The notes beneath the pieces were generated by a model, which was not told the DNA's origin, searched no databases, and saw only the letters and a list, made by a program, of their open reading frames with translations. The translations under genes and the position numbers were made by a program. From the NCBI GenBank assembly GCA_051313645.2, contig JBNRSN020000016.1, forward strand, positions 123,256,001 through 123,320,000: a DNA stretch of 64,000 nt. The letters are read 5' to 3'. This DNA is from Centroscyllium fabricii. Lineage: Eukaryota. Shown here piece after piece: positions 5,920-64,000 of this stretch. Every line of letters begins with the position of its first letter. Position 1 is the first letter of the stretch.

Positions 5920-6049
5920 GTTTTCGAACTCGGCCGTGTGAATCGAGCGACAGATTTCACAAATGTGAACGAGCGCAGCTCCCGGTCTCACGCCCTGCTT
6001 ATAGTCTCCGTTACTGGGGTAAACCTCACCTCTGGAGTCCAGACAACAG
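5920..6049 (+). CDS. KIFC3: KIFC3 internal exon, switch I
   Basis: AG/GT; VFELGRVNRATDFTNVNERSSRSHALLIVSVTGVNLTSGVQTT contains the NxxSSRSH motif. Confidence 0.95.
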
Positions 6050-6256
6050 GTAGGATCTGGGCGTTGCAAAGAGAGGTGACTACGCCGAGGCTGCAGGTGT
6101 CGGTGTGCACGAGTACTTTGTACATTAGAAGCTTTGATCTGCCAACTTTATTAAAAGAAAGGTTTAACATTGTCCATAGATTTTAAACGGTCAGAGTTCC
6201 AAACAGTGTTTCTCAGATTTCTGCCCATTCATCCAAGTTTTATTCATTTTAACACA

Positions 6257-6477
6257 AAAGCAAAATACTGCAGATGCTGGAAATCTGAAATAAGAACAGA
6301 AAATGCTGGAAAGACTCAGCAGGTCAGGCAGCATCTGTGGAGAGAGAAACCGAGTTAACGTTTCAGGTCGATGACCTTTCGCCAGTTCTGATGCAGGGGC
6401 ATCGACCTGAAACATTATCTCTGTTTCTCTCTCTACAGATGCTGCCTGACCGGCTGAGTATTTCCAGCATTTTCTGC
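6257..6477. mobile_element. Penelope-like inverted terminal repeat (fold-back) with degenerate hammerhead motif
   Basis: About 90-bp inverted arms; same family as 43921-44548, which carries a GIY-YIG C-terminal remnant. Confidence 0.8.
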
Positions 6478-10695: not shown

Positions 10696-11152
10696 AAGCT
10701 CTAATTGACTGGCCGGAACCAGAAGAAAGAATGGACTCATTGTGGGAGTCAATAAATGTGTGCGTGGGTTTTCTGCTGGAACGAGCTCCAGGGCACGACA
10801 AAACCGCTTGCCCGGGGCAAGCAAAATGCGCCATCGGGCAAGCAGAAGAAAATTTCACTTGCCCAGCCGGGCAAGTGCAATCATGATCGAGGCCACGGGA
10901 ACAGGTGGTTGGATCCCACCCTGGAGGTGGCTGCGGATGGGCCGGACGCGCTTCAGCCGATGGGTTTTGAACTCTGCCCCGCCCGAGCTCAGCCAATCAC
11001 AACCCAGCAGTTTTCTCGCGCTCTGGCGGTTTTGAAGCGCTGCGCCCTGCCCCTGCCCACGCTCGACCAATAATAGCTCACTCTGGCCGGCGGCCCGCCC
11101 GCCGCTCGGCACAGCAGCAGCTCAAACCGAGCAGGAAAGCGAGGGCGAATAG

Positions 11153-11246
11153 CAAAATACTACAGATGCTGGAAATCCGAAATAACAACAGAAAATGCTG
11201 GAAAAACTCAGCAGGCCAGGCAGCATCGATGGAGGGAAATATAGTC
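11153..11246 (-). mobile_element. Truncated Penelope-like terminal repeat fragment nested in the hAT-like element
   Basis: Matches arms at 6260 and 43929; flanked by AATAG direct repeats. Confidence 0.75.
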
Positions 11247-11424
11247 AATAGAAAAATATAGAAGCCCCGCTTCGTCCAGCCCCCCCCCCCCCCCCCCCCT
11301 CCCCCAACCACCACCTCATTAAAAGGAGAAAACCACAAAGGCTGCAAAAAAGAAAGAACTGAGAAAAAGATGAACAGATGATGAGTGAAGGGACTGGGAT
11401 GAGGTGACAGCGAGCTTCCTCTCG

Positions 11425-11895
11425 GGGACACTGACACCCAGAGACCGAATCCAGGGACACTGGCACCCAGAGACCGAATCCAGGGACACTGACGCCCAGA
11501 GACCGAATCCAGGGACACTGACGCCCAGAGACTGAATCCAGGGACACTGACGCCCAGAGACCGAATCCAGGGACACTGACGCCCAGAGACCGAATCCAGG
11601 GACACTGACGCCCAGAGACCGAATCCAGGGACACTGACGCCCAGAGACCGAATCCAGGGACACTGACGCCCAGAGACCGAATCCTGGGACACTTACGCCC
11701 AGAGACCGAATCCAGGGACACTGGCACCCAGAGACCAAATCCAGGGACACTGACGCCCAGAGACCGAATCCAGGGACACTGACACCCAGAGACCGAATCC
11801 AGGGACACTGGCACCCAGAGACCGAATCCAGGGACACTGGCACCCAGAGACCGAATCCAGGGACACTGACACCCAGAGACCGAATCCAGGGACAG
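11425..11895 (+). repeat. 29-bp minisatellite, about 16 copies
   Basis: Unit gggacactgacgcccagagaccgaatcca. Confidence 0.97.
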
Positions 11896-12499
11896 TCCAG
11901 GGTGTGACAAAACCGCTTGCCTGCTCGATGATCGAGGCCACGGGAACGGGTGGGTGGATCCCGCCCTGGAGGCGGGTGCGGGTAGGCCAGGTGGGCTGGG
12001 CGGCACGGCGGGAATTGGAGGAGGCGGCGTGTCCATCAGGAGACGGGGCAGCAGTCGGGTTAGGTGGAGCGGGCTGGTGGTGCGCAGCAAGAGTGGGTCG
12101 GTGCCGTAGACCCGCTGAGGGGGGAGAGAAAAAACCGGAGCAGCTGCTGGATGAAGGTAGGCGGGGAGAGAGTGAGGGAGCCCATGGGCTACAGAGGCTT
12201 CACAGAAAGTTTGGTAAATGAGGGAAGAATGTTCAGAGTAGAGAGAGAGAGACCCTGGCAGAGAGGGCCAGAAACCGGACCAATGCAACTAAAGGCACAA
12301 TCACAATGTATGGCTTTATATTGAAGCATTTTAATAAAAATGTAAAATCTTTATTTATTCCTTTAAAAATTTTGGGCAAGTGAAATTTGTGTTCAGGCAA
12401 GTGTTTTGGAAATCCAATTGCCCTACTGGGCAAGTGGGAAAAAAAAAAAATTTTTGTAGCACCCTGAGCTCTTATCTAACCTTTCTCTGATCTCCGCAG

Positions 12500-33619: not shown

Positions 33620-34204
33620 CTGGCGAAATACACAGTACAATGCAAAACAAGTTAAATGCAACAACAAAAAAAGCCACTTGGTTTGGCAAACCGTCAAGAA
33701 CCTCTGCTGCAGACTTCCTCATTAATAATTTATAGCAACTGCCGGATAAGAAACTTATCAAGCGTTGAATGGGAAAGAGAAAAACAACTGGGCAATCGCT
33801 CTTAAAATTTTGGCACTGCTTAGTCATGTGATCCTGCTCCCTGAGCTACTACTCAGATTGGTAGCCTCCTTCCCTGCACAATTGTCACTGCATTTCAAAA
33901 ATAATTCTACCGGAGCTGCTGCAAGATGTTTCAATGCGATAAGACACTAAACAAATATGCAGTTTTATATAATTTAAAGCTGATAAACTTTAATACATAT
34001 CTATCAACACAAATACTCAGGAAGATTGGAGCTTCCTGTATGCATAGGATCAAGAATTGGAGAACAAAGAATTACCGGAGGGCCTTTGCCATCATTTGTT
34101 ATTATTTATCTACCAAAGGTTTAAACGCCAACACCATTGATGTGATCTTACCACTGATCCCACATCTATATCCAGAACCAAATTAGCCAACATGCACACA
34201 CTGC

Positions 34205-35207
34205 CTTTAGTGTGCAGATATAGACAGGAAGGGAGCACGCGGCCTTAGTGTAGATATAGACAAGAAGGGAGCACGCGGCCTTAGTGTAGATATAGACAGG
34301 AAGGGAGCACGCGGCCTTAGTGTAGATATAAACAGGAAGGGAGCACGCGGCCTTAGTGTAGATATAGACAGGAAGGGAGCACGCGGCCTTAGTGTAGATA
34401 TAGACAGGAAGGGAGCACGCGGCCTTAGTGTAGATATAGACAGGAAGGGAGCACGCGGCCTTAGTGTAGATATAAACAGGAAGGGAGCACGCGGCCTTTA
34501 GTGTAGATATAAACAGGAAGGGAGCACGCGGCCTTCAGTGTACAGGTATAGACAGGAAGGGAGCACGCGGCCTTTAGTGTAGATATAAACAGGAAGGGAG
34601 CACGCGGCCTTTAGTGTACAGATATAAACAGGAAGGGAGCACGCGGCCTTTAGTATACAGGTATAGACAGGAAGGGAGCACGCGGCCTTTAGTACACAGG
34701 TATAGACAGGAAGGGAGCACGCAGCCGTAGTGTGCAGATATAGACAGGAAGGGAGCACGCGGCCTTTAGTGTAGATATAAACAGGAAGGGAGCACGCGGC
34801 CTTTAGTGTAGATATAAACAGGAAGGGAGCACGCGGCCTTTAGTGTAGATATAAACAGGAAGGGAGCACGCGGCCTTTAGTGTAGATATAAACAGGAAGG
34901 GAGCACGCGGCCTTTAGTGTAGATATAAACAGGAAGGGAGCACGCGGCCTTTAGTGTAGATATAAACAGGAAGGGAGCACGCGGCCTTCAGTGTACAGGT
35001 ATAGACAGGAAGGGAGCACGCGGCCTTTAGTGTAGATATAAACAGGAAGGGAGCACGCGGCCTTTAGTGTACAGATATAAACAGGAAGGGAGCACGCGGC
35101 CTTTACTGTAGATATAAACAGGAAGGGAGCACGCGGCCTTTAGTATACAGGTATAGACAGGAAGGGAGCACGCGGCCTTTAGTATACAGGTATAGACAGG
35201 AAGGGAG
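34205..35207 (+). repeat. 36-39-bp minisatellite, about 27 copies
   Basis: Unit agtgtagatata(g/a)acaggaagggagcacgcggcctt(t). Confidence 0.97.
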
Positions 35208-35485
35208 GGCAGTGCCAGCTGAGCGGAGTTCTGTCCTCACTGACCTCCACAAAAGGTGCCCTTGCCAGCAAGCATTATTGGCATTGATTGGCAGCAGAAA
35301 CTCTGGTTTATTTTCCACCCCTACTACCAAACAGAAAGCAAAAGCTTGTGTAGAACAAAAGTATAAACAATGAGAATTCAAGTGCCCCATCGCTTCAGAG
35401 TCCACTGCTGTGGAGAAAATACAACTGCAGAAAAAAATTACATTAAATTACCCAAAGGGTAAATAAAACACTAAACACCACTTAC

Positions 35486-42716: not shown

Positions 42717-44018
42717 GCCACTAGCATATCAGTAAAACGCAATGGCAACTACATGAAACTTTTGTACTATGCCCACTTGAATTGTGAAAAACATCCAGCA
42801 GCTTGGAGAGAGCCTCTCGAGGTACTTAATACCAAGTTGATTACAGGACTGTCACTGGTGATAGTGGAAGAAAGCAAATTGAGGTGCTTAATGGGAGAGT
42901 ATCTCCAAAGCAGCCTACTGGCAGAGTGAATACTTTGCCCTAAAGTGTATTGGTATCAAGATGTTCAAATAAAATGACCTGTTTTCACATTCTATGTTGG
43001 ACTAATGGATTCCCCCAGAATAATGGAGGCGATAAGAGACTCACGTAGACCACTTTCTTTTTTTTTGGGGGGGGGGGCAAAGGCCAGCCTTAGACATACA
43101 TTGTCATTTCATGCAGCACAATATGCATGTAATAGTCTATCACACAGTAAAACGTAAGTCAATAAAGCATGTGTTGTTAGAATCCAATCCAATAAGACAG
43201 ATAACAAAAATAAATGCAAGATTTAGGACAAAGAGTAAAAAGATATTTTTTTTATAAATAGAGGGTTGTGAGAAATGTTCCCTGCTTTGTCCTGAGCAGC
43301 CCGTTTCTTTTAAAGCATGGTCCCTTTATATTTCTGCGCACGTGCGGAATTCAAGTTGTAAAAGCCGGTGAGGGGCCTGCGCGGGACCTTTCCCATTACT
43401 GCACAGCCACGCAACTTAGACAGAATATTGGTTGTGAGGCTGTGAATTGCACTACTAGAGTTAGTGATTGAAGCAGAGACCATGTCAACTTGTAAGAATA
43501 AGTTGGGATGAGTGATTAAGACAACACTGATTCGTTGGGCCAAATGACCTTTCGCTGTGTTATAATTTCCATGCAATAAGCAAATGCTTACCATGGCAAA
43601 TTACTTTTATATGTAGAAATTTCAGGGCAATTGTGAACAAGCTGACTAAGAGGGGATACCCTGGAGAAACAGCAAGAGGATTAGCGAAAGGAATAAAAAT
43701 GCTATGGAGTGCTAGGGAAGTGCTGAACTCTATTCCAAATGAACCGGCTTGTAATCTGCTTCAGCTACTGCTCTTGGTCCCAAGGTTGTGATGATGGAAA
43801 TCTCATCAGACAAGAGACTATTTCTGAAATGGTCAATGTTCCCTGCATGGGAGGGGGGGCATGCGAAAGGGGCAGAAATAAATATTCAAAGTAGCTCTCT
43901 TTTTGCCCAATACGATGAAAATGCTACAGCAAAATACTGCAGATGCTGGAAATCCGAAATAACAGAAAATGCTGGAAAAACTCAGTAGGCCAGGCAACAT
44001 CCATGGAGAGAAACATAG

Positions 44019-44054
44019 TGTCGACGTTTCGGGTTAGGAACCTTTGTCAAGACT
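44019..44054 (-). ncRNA. Minimal type I hammerhead ribozyme motif (U3:A8 variant)
   Basis: AGUC-UUGACAA-AGGUUCCUAACCC-GAAA-CG-UC/GAC. Confidence 0.65.
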
Positions 44055-44452
44055 AAAGCATGGAAATGAAAGAGGTAGGAAGGCCGGGGGAGCTGGGAGG
44101 ATGCAGAAAACAAAGAGAAGAGAGAACAAAGAGAAAAGACGTTAAGAGGTATTCAATGCAGATGCAGCTGTGTTCAGAAGGCCGCTGTAGATTAGGTGTG
44201 AAAAGCACTAGCAGAATGGGAGGGGGCTGCTACGAGAGAGAGAAGAAAAAAAAAGGGCGTGGATAAAAATATTGGGGGCCGAAGTTATGATCTGAAATTG
44301 TTGAACTCGATATGGAGTCCGGAGGGCTGTAGAGTGCCTGTTCACAGCCGCATCTAATACCTCTCAGCAGATTTTCTCTTTGTTCTCTCTTCTCTTTGTT
44401 TTCTGTTCCCTCCCAGCCCCCTGCCTTCCTACCTCTTTCATTTCCTGGCTTT

Positions 44453-44488
44453 AGTCTTGACAAAGGGCTCGAACCTGAAACGTTGACT
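44453..44488 (+). ncRNA. Minimal type I hammerhead ribozyme motif (U3:A8 variant)
   Basis: AGUC-UUGACAA-AGGGCUCGAACCU-GAAA-CG-UU/GACU; stem I AGUC/GACU, palindromic AACGUU. Confidence 0.65.
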
Positions 44489-44731
44489 CTATATTTCTCT
44501 CCACGGATGTTGCCTGACCTGCTGAGTTTTTCCGGCATTTTCTGTTATTACGATGAAAGCGCTTTTGGTCCTCGCGGAGCTTGGACAAAGCCAAACCAAT
44601 GCCTGGTAAATCACAATTGTACAGAAACTGCAAATAAAGCAGTGAAAAGAAAGGAAATGTTTAGTCGAACAACGCGGAGTTGAAAGGATCAGGAGCTCCT
44701 CTTTGCTCTAACCGAATAGAAACTGCTGTAC

Positions 44732-44919
44732 CTTTGTGGCCCGCTGCAGGTGGTTAGTGGCCGCTCGTAGTTGCGCCGGAGTGCGGCTCCTTTCGTCACT
44801 GGCAGATTGAACAGCTTTTCATCCTCAACTACGCCCTGGACAATAGAACCAGTCTTCTTCACACGATTCAGATCCACCACGAACGTCGAGACTGTCACCT
44901 GACTGAACGAAGCTCCGAT
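44732..44919 (-). CDS. KATNB1: KATNB1 exon
   Basis: AG/GT; IGASFSQVTVSTFVVDLNRVKKTGSIVQGVVEDEKLFNLPVTKGAALRRNYERPLTTCSGPQ. Confidence 0.93.
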
Positions 44920-45898
44920 CTATTATATAAACAAAGCACCGAGTGATTTGAAATAGCACTTTGAGGTGAACAGTAAAGGACGTCTGCCCCTCTTGTGCTG
45001 AACAGGCAGCACATTTGTTCAGAGCAAAGTTGTGTAAGGTACCAAGTCTGTCACATGCAATCCAGTAGAAAAATCAGATTCCATTCATTTTAGAAAATGT
45101 AATATTACTTACTAGCCATTTATTTCATTCTATGGCACACAAGCAGCTTTGTTTATCAGGAACATGATCATTTGTTTTTTATATTAGTTCCTAGGATGTT
45201 GGATGATAATTTAGGGTATTGAGTAAACAGAAGTCAGTCCAATCAACAAGGCACAATTCAGAGCTTTAAACCAGGACAAATCACCCACACAGAATACTAC
45301 ACCATCCACCAACTTCACCAATGGGAACATGCAGGACAGTAGGCTGCAGCAAGATGTTGAAGACAGTAATTTAATTGAACAGTTATGATGTTTCAACAGT
45401 CCAAATGTCAGCAGACACCTGGTAAATTACTGCTTTAATCTCAGGTCCAGCGCATGATTTGCATTTCCACACAGCCACCTCATGAAGTCACTTGCCCCCC
45501 GCCCCCCGCCTCCCCCCCCACCCCCAAATCATTAAGACTCAAGTAGATTCCACTTCTGCAAATCACACGTCCCCTCTTTTAATGAATTTACTATAACGCA
45601 AGAATCGCAAGGAGGCCAATACACGTCATGGACCATCACTCTCACTTTGCAGTCTATTGCTAAATCCCTATTGACAAGTTCACTCAAATCAGCAGGGTAA
45701 AGCATTCTTGTTAATCACAAACACGTGAAACAGATGTTGGTGTCAATAACTCATCATGAAATATATTGGGACATTTTGTTGCAATTAAGAGCTGCCTCCG
45801 GTTGGAAATGGCCCCGTACAGCACGTGAGGTGGAAGCTTAGCTTTCCCCAACAACACTGACTGTGGCCCTGAGGTGCAACAGACATGCGGATACTGTA

Positions 45899-50222: not shown

Positions 50223-50901
50223 CTGAATATTTTAAAAAAGGGGAAAATAAATCACATGCACTGAAGATAGCAACTCCTTCCATCTTCATGGATATAGATA
50301 CAACACAGGTAAATTTCACTAGTATCGCTTTTCAATGTCAGGAAACAAATCTAGCTGGGAATTACAGCCTATAAACGCATCGCTAGCCTTAATTTCAATG
50401 GACTCACTTACTATAAAAAAGACATCTTCATGTGTATTTATTATTTTCTAAATATAGAGTGTAACTTCAGTGGGGTTTTTTCTTTTTACATTCATTAGAC
50501 AAGGGACGCCCTTTTCCACTTTGATATCCAGTCTCAGCAGCAAGCACCTCCAAGTCACATACATTGGCTGAATGCAGAGTCAAGTCTCCCTCTACACTGC
50601 CAGACAATATACCTTAAAAAGCAGGGAAGGAAAGTTCAAGGGAATACTTTTTCCTTAAAAGATCTTCTGCCTACTGAAAAAAACACTGGAATGGCTTGAC
50701 ATTTTAAAAATTAAATCAAACTCCATCTCAACAGACATCCAGAATACAGATCAATTAATCAGCTGATAAGTTACAACATTGACTTACAGTATCTGAAGAA
50801 GTAACCAGAATATTTTTTATGGATTTCAGTGTCTTTGGAGGGTTTATTTGATGATCCAGAGCTGCCCAGCTTGAAAATATAGGCTACTGACAATACAAGT
50901 A

Positions 50902-51556
50902 CAGGTTGAGCACCGTTATTCCGGCACCCTCGGGGCCAGGCCGGTGCCGGACTACTGAAAATTCCGGACCGCTGAAGGTTCGGGGGAGCGCGCGGTAGAA
51001 CACTCCCCGGGTCCCGGAGCGCGCGGTAGAACACTCCCCGGGTCCCGGAGCGTGCGGTAGAACACTCCCCGGGTCCCGGAGCGTGCGGTAGAACACTCCC
51101 CGGGTCCCGGAGCGCGCGGTAGAACACACCCCGGGTCCCGGAGCGCGCGGTAGAACACACCCCGGGTCCCGGAGCGCGCGGTAGAACACACCCCGGGTCC
51201 CGGAGCGCGCGGTAGAACACTCCCCGGGTCCCGGAGCGCGCGGTAGAACACTCCCCGGGTCCCGGAGCGCGCGGTAGAACACTCCCCGGGTCCCGGAGCG
51301 CGCGGTAGAACACTCCCCGGGTCCCGGAGCGCACGGTAGAACACTCCCCAGGAGGGAGCCCGGGGATAGAACACTTACAAGAACTGAAAAACCAGCAACC
51401 CAAACGCCCGACGCCTTCGGCGCTCGCCCACTCTTTACGGGAAACGGCGGCACTGCCGGGCGGCTGCTGCACAAACCGATGGCTGCCGGTTTCAATTCGT
51501 GCCAAACCACTGAAGTTGCCGGACCATCGGGTGCCGGATTAGCGGTGCTCAACCTG
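50902..51556. mobile_element. Tigger-like MITE (family of 31605-31888, opposite orientation) containing a minisatellite
   Basis: TA|CAGGTTGAGCACC...GGTGCTCAACCTG|TA. Confidence 0.92.
50985..51349 (+). repeat. 31-bp GC-rich minisatellite, about 12 copies
   Basis: Unit ggagcgcgcggtagaacactccccgggtccc. Confidence 0.97.
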
Positions 51557-62160: not shown

Positions 62161-62199
62161 CATTCTCTCTCTCCCACCCTCCCTCTCCAGTTTGTGCGT

Positions 62200-64000
62200 T
62201 TCTCTCTCCCTCCCCCCCCACCCCTCTCTCTCCCTCCCCCCCACCTCTCCCTCCCCCCATACCCCTCTCCCTCCCCCCCACCTCTCCCTCCCCCCATACC
62301 CCTCTCCCCATACCCCTCTCCCTCCCTCTCCCCCCCCACTCCCACACCCCCCCTCCCCTCCCTCCCCCCCCACCCCTCTCTCCCTCTCCCCCCCCCCACC
62401 CCACCCACCCCTCTCCCCCCACCCACCCCTCTATCCCTCCCCCCACCCCTCTCCCCCCACCCACCCCTCTCTCCCTCTCTCCCACCCACCCCTCTCCCTC
62501 CCTCCCCCCCACCCACCCCTCTCCCTCCCTCCCCCCCACCCACCCCTCTCCCTCCCTCCCCCCCACCCACCCCTCTCTCCCTCCCTCCCCCCCACCCACC
62601 CCTCTCTCCCTCCCTCCCCCCCACCCACCCCTCTCTCCCTCCCTCCCCCCACCCACCCCTCTCTCCCTCCCTCCCCCCCACCCACCCCTCTCTCCCTCCC
62701 TCCCCCCCACCCCACCCCTCTCTCCCTCCCTCCCCCCCACCCACCCCTCTCTCCCTCCCTCCCCCCCACCCACCCCTCTCTCCCTCCCTCCCCCCCACCC
62801 ACCCCTCTCTCCCTCCCTCCCCCCCACCCACCCCTCTCTCCCTCCCTCCCCCCCACCCACCCCTCTCTCCCTCCCTCCCCCCACCCACCCCTCTCTCCCT
62901 CCCTCCCCCCCCACCCCCCCACCCACCCCTCCCTCCCCCCCACCCACCCCTCTCTCTCTCCCTCCCCCCCCACCCACCCACCCCTCTCTCCCTCCCTCCC
63001 CCCCACCCACCCCTCTCTCCCTCCCTCCCCCCCACCCACCCCTCTCTCCCTCCCCCCCCCCACCCACCCCTCTCTCCCTCCCTCCCCCCCACCCACCCCT
63101 CTCTCCCTCCCCCCCACCCACCCCTCCCTCCCCCCCACCCCTCCCTCCCCCCCACCCACCCCTCTCTCCCTCCCTCCCCCCCACCCACCCCTCTCTCCCT
63201 CCCTCCCCCCCCACCCACCCCTCTCTCCCTCCCTCCCCCCCCACCCACCCCTCTCTCCCCCCCCACCCACCCCTCTCTCTCCCTCCCTCCCCCCCTCCCT
63301 CCCCCCCCACCCACCCCTCCTCCCCACCCCCCCACCCCTCCTCCCCACCCCCACCCCTCCTCCACCCCCCTCTCCCCCCCCACCCCACCCCCCTCTCCCC
63401 CCCCACCCCACCCCCCTCTCCCCCCCCTCCCTCCCCACCCCTCTCCCCCCCACCCCACCCCCCTCTCTCCCTCCCCACCCCACCCCACCCCCCTCTCTCC
63501 CTCCCCACCCCACCCCACCCCCCTCTCTCCCTCCCCACCCCACCCCCCTCTCCCCACCCCACCCCCCTCCCTCCCCACCCCACCCCCCTCTCTCCCTCCC
63601 CACCCCACCCCCCTCTCTCCCTCCCCACCCCACCCCCCTCTCTCCCTCCCCACCCCCCTCCCCCCCCTCTCTCCCTCCCCACCCCCCTCCCCCCACCCCA
63701 CCCCCCTCTCCCACCCCCCTCTCTCCCTCCCCACCCCCCTCCACCCCACCCCCCTCTCTCCCTCCCCACCCCACCCCCCTCCCCCCCACCCCACCCCCCT
63801 CTCTCCCCCCCACCCCACCCCCCTCTCCCTCCCCACCCCTCTCTCCCACCCCACCCCCCTCTCCCTCCCCACCCCCCTCTCCCTCCCCACCCCTCTCTCC
63901 CTCCCCACCCCACCCCCCTCTCCCACCCCACCCCCCTCTCCCACCCCACCCCCCTCTCCCTCCCCACCCCTCTCTCCCTCCCCACCCCACCCCTCTCTCC
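62200..64000 (+). repeat. C-rich low-complexity tract (CCCCA/CCCT/CT units), essentially no G on the + strand
   Basis: Direct reading; runs off the window end. Confidence 0.95.

Follow-up and report, generated by a model that had tools for sequence, protein, structure and literature searches.

A head-to-head Penelope-like insertion in a KATNB1 intron of Centroscyllium fabricii, and apparent compensatory change in the hammerhead 3:8 pair of its family

The stretch of DNA analysed here, which we call the window, comprises 64,000 nucleotides of Centroscyllium fabricii (contig JBNRSN020000016.1, positions 123,256,001 to 123,320,000 of the forward strand). It contains KATNB1 exons, a kinesin exon, possibly of KIFC3, as vertebrate synteny with KATNB1 would suggest, and, at 43921-44548, a 5'-truncated Penelope-like element (PLE) consisting of a sense copy with a 31-nt tail and an inverted copy, bounded by a 10-bp target-site duplication (TSD). 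The features are as follows.

5920-6048, plus strand: kinesin motor-domain exon (Pfam PF00225)
6256-6476, no strand assigned: stub of a C3:G8-type family, folded back on itself, in which both hammerhead arms are decayed, just after the kinesin-motor exon
11151-11245, minus strand: third stub of the element 3' end, 95 bp, without a hammerhead
41242-41102, minus strand: next KATNB1 exon
43911-43920: left copy of the TSD, TACGATGAAA
43921-43927: 7 additional bases between the TSD and the end of the 3' tail, differing from the family continuation
43928-43958, minus strand: PLE 'tail' extension, 31 nt, in the sense copy only
43928-44339, minus strand: 5'-truncated sense copy of the PLE 3' end (ORF end, 3' UTR/pLTR, hammerhead, tail), aligned to the long copy L031
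44019-44054, minus strand: minimal type I hammerhead motif, U3 (44050):A8 (44045), GUC triplet
44285-44338, minus strand: last 17 codons of the RT/GIY-YIG ORF, GTLQPSGLHIEFNNFRS, and stop; the same peptide ends the longer copies L002 and L031
44337-44548, plus strand: inverted, 5'-truncated, tail-less copy, head-to-head with the sense copy at a 3-nt CCT microhomology
44453-44488, plus strand: second minimal hammerhead motif, U3 (44457):A8 (44462), GUU triplet
44549-44558: right copy of the TSD, TACGATGAAA
44734-44919, minus strand: KATNB1 exon of the host, preceding the insertion and sharing 98% identity with a shark KATNB1

Contigs of sequencing runs confirm the limits of the insertion. A contig from another organism (run X3) joins 43836-43910 straight to 44549-44714, an empty site in which the TSD sequence is present as a single copy, while both insertion junctions are bridged by contigs from two samples of one further organism. 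Since the KATNB1 exons at 44919-44734 and 41242-41102 flank the element, the insertion is intronic; contigs of runs that we guessed to be RNA cover exactly 44732-44920, i.e. the first of these exons. The sense copy shares the orientation of KATNB1, and its hammerhead begins 680 nt downstream of the exon end. Thus the two inverted U3:A8 motifs, the TSD, the GIY-YIG-type C-terminus and the GUC-bearing motif in the KATNB1 pre-mRNA, all of them claimed in a preliminary description made from the sequence alone, are present. An 86-codon open frame beside the insertion (43531-43788) had neither a Pfam match nor a real match to the PLE ORF, and a short repeat with raised contig depth adjoins the insertion at 43400-43515.

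The CCT microhomology at the junction of the two arms was read from the sequence, and contigs have loose ends there, at 44339. Past the end of the tail, 28 of 33 family copies continue ATCN or ATTN (mostly ATC), which the window copy does not. The TSD starts with TACGAT, the reverse complement of the usual post-tail sequence in family copies, and the same junction (43911-43927) contains GAAAATGCT, which is also present at the short end of the element; target-template annealing plus a template jump is a possible source of both.

An RT/GIY-YIG ORF at the family level, an inverted truncated copy, a one-sided tail and a short TSD together mark the insertion as an endonuclease-bearing (EN+) PLE. 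ORF pieces of L031 match GIY-YIG (E 2.5e-4; 21.7 bits against a curated cut-off of 22.6) and RVT_1 (E 0.018; 15.2 against 29.6 bits), both below the cut-off, and the GIY-YIG domain of longer copies ends in the peptide of which the window keeps 17 codons. L031 also carries a 1,313-bp direct repeat at 93% identity together with an inverted copy, i.e. partial-tandem pLTRs. Between RT and endonuclease, the longer copies have a CX4CX2C linker, read by eye (CKRKKCNTC in L031, similar in L002 and L029), and a zinc-finger-like CX2-5CxxC linker in this place is a feature of the Neptune clade, shared with Nematis (PMC8557442, Craig et al. 2021). The element is likely of Neptune type, a likeness of structure rather than of RT phylogeny; the window copy retains just those 17 codons. 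In its anatomy the insertion equals the published layout of EN+ PLEs (PMC3846280, PMC8557442), as known from Pen2 of Adineta vaga (PMC3846280, Arkhipova et al. 2013), which has a head-to-head inverted copy, a 9-10-bp TSD, a one-sided 31-bp tail and a microhomology junction. One-sided tails are also described for Poseidon PAc of Anolis, a member of a different PLE clade in which two reverse-transcription start sites explain the tail, and both target strands are cut and extended (PMC11167929, Frangieh et al. 2024). We also considered a non-LTR retrozyme, since type I hammerheads are known from short PLE-related repeats of that kind, one cartilaginous fish included (PMC7229834; bioRxiv 10.64898/2026.07.22.740005). 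This was ruled out: retrozymes are head-to-tail tandem units, whereas the arms here stand head-to-head and come with an ORF remnant, a TSD and a tail.

The locus itself is ordinary. When 100 evenly spaced 10-kb stretches (1 Mb) of the 7.2-Gb genome were sampled, 50 element ends were found, which corresponds to about 50 per megabase. A core could be parsed in 23 of them (10 C3:G8, nine U3:A8, three C3·A8 and one U3·G8), the other 27 being truncated, decayed or missed by the parser.

Both window motifs fit the core YUGANRA...GAAA...UH with a 3:8 pair, here U3:A8. The minus-strand motif (44054-44019) reads AGUC-UUGACAA-A-GGUU/CCUA/ACCC-GAAA-CG-UC-GACA, with a predicted cut between 44023 and 44022, and carries a U·C mismatch in stem II and an A·A at the end of stem I. 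The plus-strand motif (44453-44488), antisense to KATNB1, reads AGUC-UUGACAA-A-GGGC/UCGA/ACCU-GAAA-CG-UU-GACU, with a G·U at 10.1-11.1, a C·A mismatch in stem II and U17. In family-typical copies, by contrast with these two, helices I and II are paired, with compensatory changes. An Rfam scan of the whole 64 kb (E<=5) gave four matches, none of them to a hammerhead family, and none of seven isolated motifs folded better than its shuffles (z -1.3 to 0), as expected for minimal hammerheads, although this lends the assignment no support. What does support a PLE remnant with minimal type I hammerheads is the family. The pLTRs of metazoan PLEs carry such motifs (min-HHRs; PMC4209133, Cervera and De la Pena 2014), and ours share with them the core, the short helix I, the unpaired base between 9 and 10.1, the palindrome at 15.2-16.2, the place behind the ORF and the dual motifs on opposite strands, which lie 100-700 bp apart in that study. 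The unpaired A and the ACGU palindrome stand in 20 of 20 aligned motifs, though ACGU was demanded by most of the search patterns.

The exchange of C3:G8 for U3:A8 is not new: it was reported for PLE min-HHRs in 2014 and for other natural hammerheads in 2011. The former study describes the U3-A8 covariation in the Cercyon elements of Schistosoma, with about 1,300 matches in S. mansoni and low activity of the motif as a dimer (PMC4209133); its Fig. S3 lists a Saccoglossus family with UUGAAGA, i.e. U3·G8, and its Fig. S4 may show U3-A8 families in Xenopus. The latter notes that C3/G8 covary to U3/A8 in several natural hammerheads, earlier proven active in vitro (PMC3088659, Perreault et al. 2011), but those are not minimal PLE motifs and the part of the paper available gives no copy-level evolutionary path. 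Nor do the rows of Fig. S3 in PMC4209133 that we covered include a cartilaginous fish, or its accessible text a tree-based count of origins or a series of wobble intermediates. Our search for literature on U3-A8 or C3-G8 covariation in hammerheads returned only PMC4209133, and one that covered few subscription journals found no publication on a repeated origin of U3:A8 through a wobble step. The locus is thus a known kind of feature, and what is new is modest evolutionary detail at the level of the family, namely the repeated origin of U3:A8 and the wobble step.

The preliminary description had set the window motifs against a C3:G8 copy at 6384-6420 (plus strand), combined with its opposite arm. 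This comparator is a composite of two decayed arms: the plus arm has CUGAUGC (A9 lost), GAAACAUU and a mismatched stem I, the minus arm has CUGGCGA, and neither is an intact C3:G8 hammerhead. Intact C3:G8 members of that family are nevertheless abundant. Similarly, the two window arms are not independent evidence for U3:A8, since both derive from one U3:A8 clade. The genomic counts given below reflect few source elements rather than independent events and come from patterns that fixed most core letters by design.

In a first frame (stem I AGUC/GACU), 6,223 exact matches were obtained, of which 5,599 are U3:A8, 438 C3:G8, 95 C3·A8 and 91 U3·G8. The U3:A8 pattern contrasts with 0 matches for a reversed-pattern control, and the 438 C3:G8 matches with 45 expected if positions 3 and 8 were independent. 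U3:A8 is thus the inherited state of a large subfamily and not peculiar to the window copy; U3·G8 shows no excess over C3·A8 in this frame proper. In a second frame (AGUU/AACU, with a longer stem II) we counted 4,327 C3:G8, 805 U3·G8 and 64 C3·A8 matches, and 1,795 U3:A8 matches with a pattern somewhat wider than the rest; of the first 100 listed, 97 fit the strict frame. Covariation in stem I and at 3:8 across many genomic copies, which had been proposed from the window, was indeed found: among 20 chosen motifs (18 recurrent types plus the two window copies), both partners change at 3:8, at the inner pair of stem I (C-G/U-A) and at 10.1-11.1 (A-U, G·U, G-C), and 98% of 200 cells are paired as against at most 49% in slid controls. 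As the rows are related and the patterns fix most core letters, this pairing is to be taken as a description of the family rather than as a test of significance.

Trees were built without the hammerhead columns from 39 copies that retain 100 nt or more of the ORF end and whose motif could be parsed; 17 further ORF-end matches lacked such a motif and were excluded. The two U3:A8 groups fall in separate clades (24 vs 12 rows), and a single U3:A8 clade is rejected with the ORF end (p-AU 0.00019) as well as with the UTR plus tail (p-AU 1.8e-5). On these trees, U3:A8 arose at least twice. In the second lineage the path seems to have led through the wobble pair. In frame 2, decay to U3·G8 on one strand and decay to C3·A8 on the other involve identical trinucleotide contexts (TCT and TTT, as the patterns show). 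Decay should thus yield equal numbers, and 805 against 64 indicates that U3·G8 was amplified. Two flank markers are ancestral at both places in 15 of 17 C3:G8 copies and derived at both in 16 of 25 U3:A8 copies, while the 15 U3·G8 copies comprise six ancestral, two half-way, four derived and three unscored, a gradient that supports U3·G8 as the intermediate. C17, counted by hand among the first 100 matches listed for each state, was found in 18 for C3:G8, 61 for U3·G8 and 83 for U3:A8. Lineage 1 also has U3·G8 copies, in a sister frame (AGUU/GACU) counted for U3 only and without a C3·A8 control, which gave 2,364 matches, with G8 in 19 of the first 100 listed; nine of the 18 U3·G8 copies fetched share a private deletion. 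The ones that the tree includes fall within the U3:A8 clade (quick tree, SH-aLRT 87-91), and here the wobble therefore looks like a step back.

An origin of U3:A8 twice among relatives suggests selection on the RNA fold, and we infer, from sequence comparison, that selection probably acted on the hammerhead fold while it was carried by the source elements, in keeping with the 'selected ribozymes' first suggested for this locus. One may also consider that the hammerhead is a largely neutral passenger, in which two AT-ward transitions drifted to fixation in a few source elements, so that the covariation is subfamily history. Few source lineages do lie behind the counts, the C>T and G>A changes both follow the usual AT-ward mutation bias, and U3·G8 subfamilies were amplified in both lineages. 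In vitro, the Anolis element inserted no less well when its hammerhead was mutated (PMC11167929), Naiad elements have spread though they lack canonical hammerheads, and one paper suggests that the hammerhead may merely parasitise PLEs (both PMC8557442). Against this, the same double change occurs in two separate clades here and in Schistosoma; the C3:G8 and U3:A8 patterns of lineage 2 differ only at positions 3, 8 (and 17); C3·A8 keeps close to what decay would give in the two full frames (95 of 6,223; 64 vs the 805 U3·G8); and at two more helix pairs both partners have changed, with loop II free to vary. We thus consider the passenger scenario improbable.

Selection on the fold need not have been strict. 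When the search did not fix the core, five of 19 motifs in the random 1 Mb showed other core changes: A6U at two separate loci with shared flanks, A9C once, and U4G in both arms of one insertion. A related insertion carries U4C in each of its arms. There are apparent non-canonical-core subfamilies with CUGUAGA (A6U, both with G12A; L071, L092) and with C[C/G]GAUGA (position 4; L097, L205), and it would seem that non-canonical cores also spread; of comparable changes, A6C has low activity and a U4C variant suffices in a viroid (PMC3088659). The recurrence of A6U and position-4 variants, which also speaks for a passenger, makes selection look real but loose, or confined to the master lineage. 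Whether this genome holds a copy-by-copy record of compensatory change in the hammerhead 3:8 pair, such that folding was selected during Penelope mobilisation in vivo, we regard as an even call; the same evenly balanced confidence applies to the particulars of that record, in which C3:G8 would have changed to U3:A8 at least twice, once via amplified U3·G8 and once with a return to U3·G8, C3·A8 remaining unamplified. Repeated pair-keeping switches with a countable wobble step would be genomic evidence for selection on the active fold, and if the reading is true, selection acts on hammerhead folding in vivo, although insertion in vitro can do without it. The natural variants C:G, U·G, U:A and C·A, nearly identical and set in a single 35-nt context, form a clean allele series with which to probe the role of the ribozyme. 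In PAc the 3:8 pair matters for cleavage, with partial rescue by C3G/G8C (PMC11167929).

For the locus itself, we have good confidence in a head-to-head, 5'-truncated insertion of an EN+ PLE, likely of Neptune type, whose arms inherited U3:A8, whose putative self-cleavage would likely be confined to tandem source elements, and which is likely inert as a copy. The element's enzyme would have cut both target strands 10 nt apart, each target end would have served as primer for reverse transcription from one or the other known start point (one includes the tail, the other does not) on RNA left uncut at the hammerhead, and the two short cDNAs would have been joined through the 3-nt microhomology. 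Among randomly sampled core-bearing copies, 33 of 39 extend at least 55 nt beyond the cut site, which suggests that the inserted templates were uncut there, as for the Anolis element in vitro, where cleavage needs protein and the insertion template is uncut RNA (PMC11167929). In elements that are active and stand in tandem, cleavage by the pLTR hammerhead would be dimeric, via the ACGU palindrome, or would be aided by the element's protein. It would probably trim precursor RNA in tandem source transcripts, and such cleavage may have kept 3:8 pairable (C:G, U:A, U·G), with C·A not amplified.

Element ends at the cut site were considered as a sign of cleaved templates and rejected. Only three of 50 5' ends lie within 5 nt of it, and of the 39 random core-bearing copies three stop at 0/+1 and one at +8, the G-run of a second inserted element following in all four. 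After about 750-900 nt the PLE end is met again in L106 and L149, as it is in the additional loci L018 and L210; in L071 and L074 no resumption was found within 3 kb. It appears that the PLE end is a recurrent target of an element with G-run/C-run termini, about 750-900 bp long where both termini could be located, which inserts at the predicted cut site (L071:7019, L074:7009, L149:7601; three of the 39 random copies directly so) or 8 nt beyond, and also in L106, L018, L210, L235 and L247.

One could imagine that the KATNB1-sense copy is active, or has been co-opted, as an intronic ribozyme and cleaves the host pre-mRNA. Its motif has the orientation of KATNB1 and lies 680 nt after the exon, with all core letters and the GUC triplet, and contigs that bridge the insertion come from two samples of a single organism. 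However, the U·C in stem II and the A·A in stem I weaken the hammerhead-like fold (-3.5 kcal/mol, where a typical copy has -7.6), a same-strand partner is absent from the window, single min-HHRs gave no cleavage in vitro (PMC4209133), and the minus-strand transcript is predicted to fold as a single hairpin (-357.7 kcal/mol, z -25) about 210 bp in length. In the KATNB1 pre-mRNA, the antisense of the inverted arm would be transcribed first and would pair with the sense motif, making cleavage of the host transcript unlikely. Same-site conservation across species with an intact fold, as for a domesticated intronic hammerhead, was not observed, the site being empty in another organism and the stems bearing lesions. 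With lesions in both motifs and the pre-mRNA-sense motif buried in the predicted hairpin, the window copy is likely inert, and any effect on the host is likelier to come from the double-stranded intronic hairpin than from cleavage; an active intronic ribozyme we consider very improbable.

Hardly tenable at all is the view that decay after insertion produced the 3:8 pattern, through loss of the CpG in CUGACGA together with C>T: CUGACGA families do yield C3·A8 copies via CpG decay (three of the first 100 matches listed), and C3·A8 was seen in three of 23 parsed random cores, but exact UUGACAA is present in 30 of 36 motifs from the 30 best-matching loci, lineage 2 has A7 and hence no CpG, the flank markers travel with the core state, and fixation at the subfamily level contradicts it.

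Several minor observations may be added. The two window arms carry different loop II types (CCUA vs UCGA), likewise in L019 and L025, and arms with differing subfamily loop or core types occur also in L029, L204 and L227, while others share rare variants (e.g. L222). Two separate RNA molecules may have been the templates for the two arms in such cases; flanks did not separate the subfamilies when this origin was examined. Some second-lineage U3:A8 copies (L173, L174, L177, L155, L159, L163, L164, L169 and L061) lie inside a larger GC-rich repeat with shared non-PLE flanks, and in L173, L174 and L177 two hammerhead-bearing ends stand on opposite strands about a common spacer. This repeat is possibly a composite non-autonomous element carrying PLE ends, which would inflate the copy count of the second lineage. 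Elsewhere in the window, tandem arrays with units of 29 bp (11309-12004), 36-39 bp (34176-35283) and 31 bp (50892-51445) are present, and a long C-rich simple-repeat tract (62170-64000) closes it.
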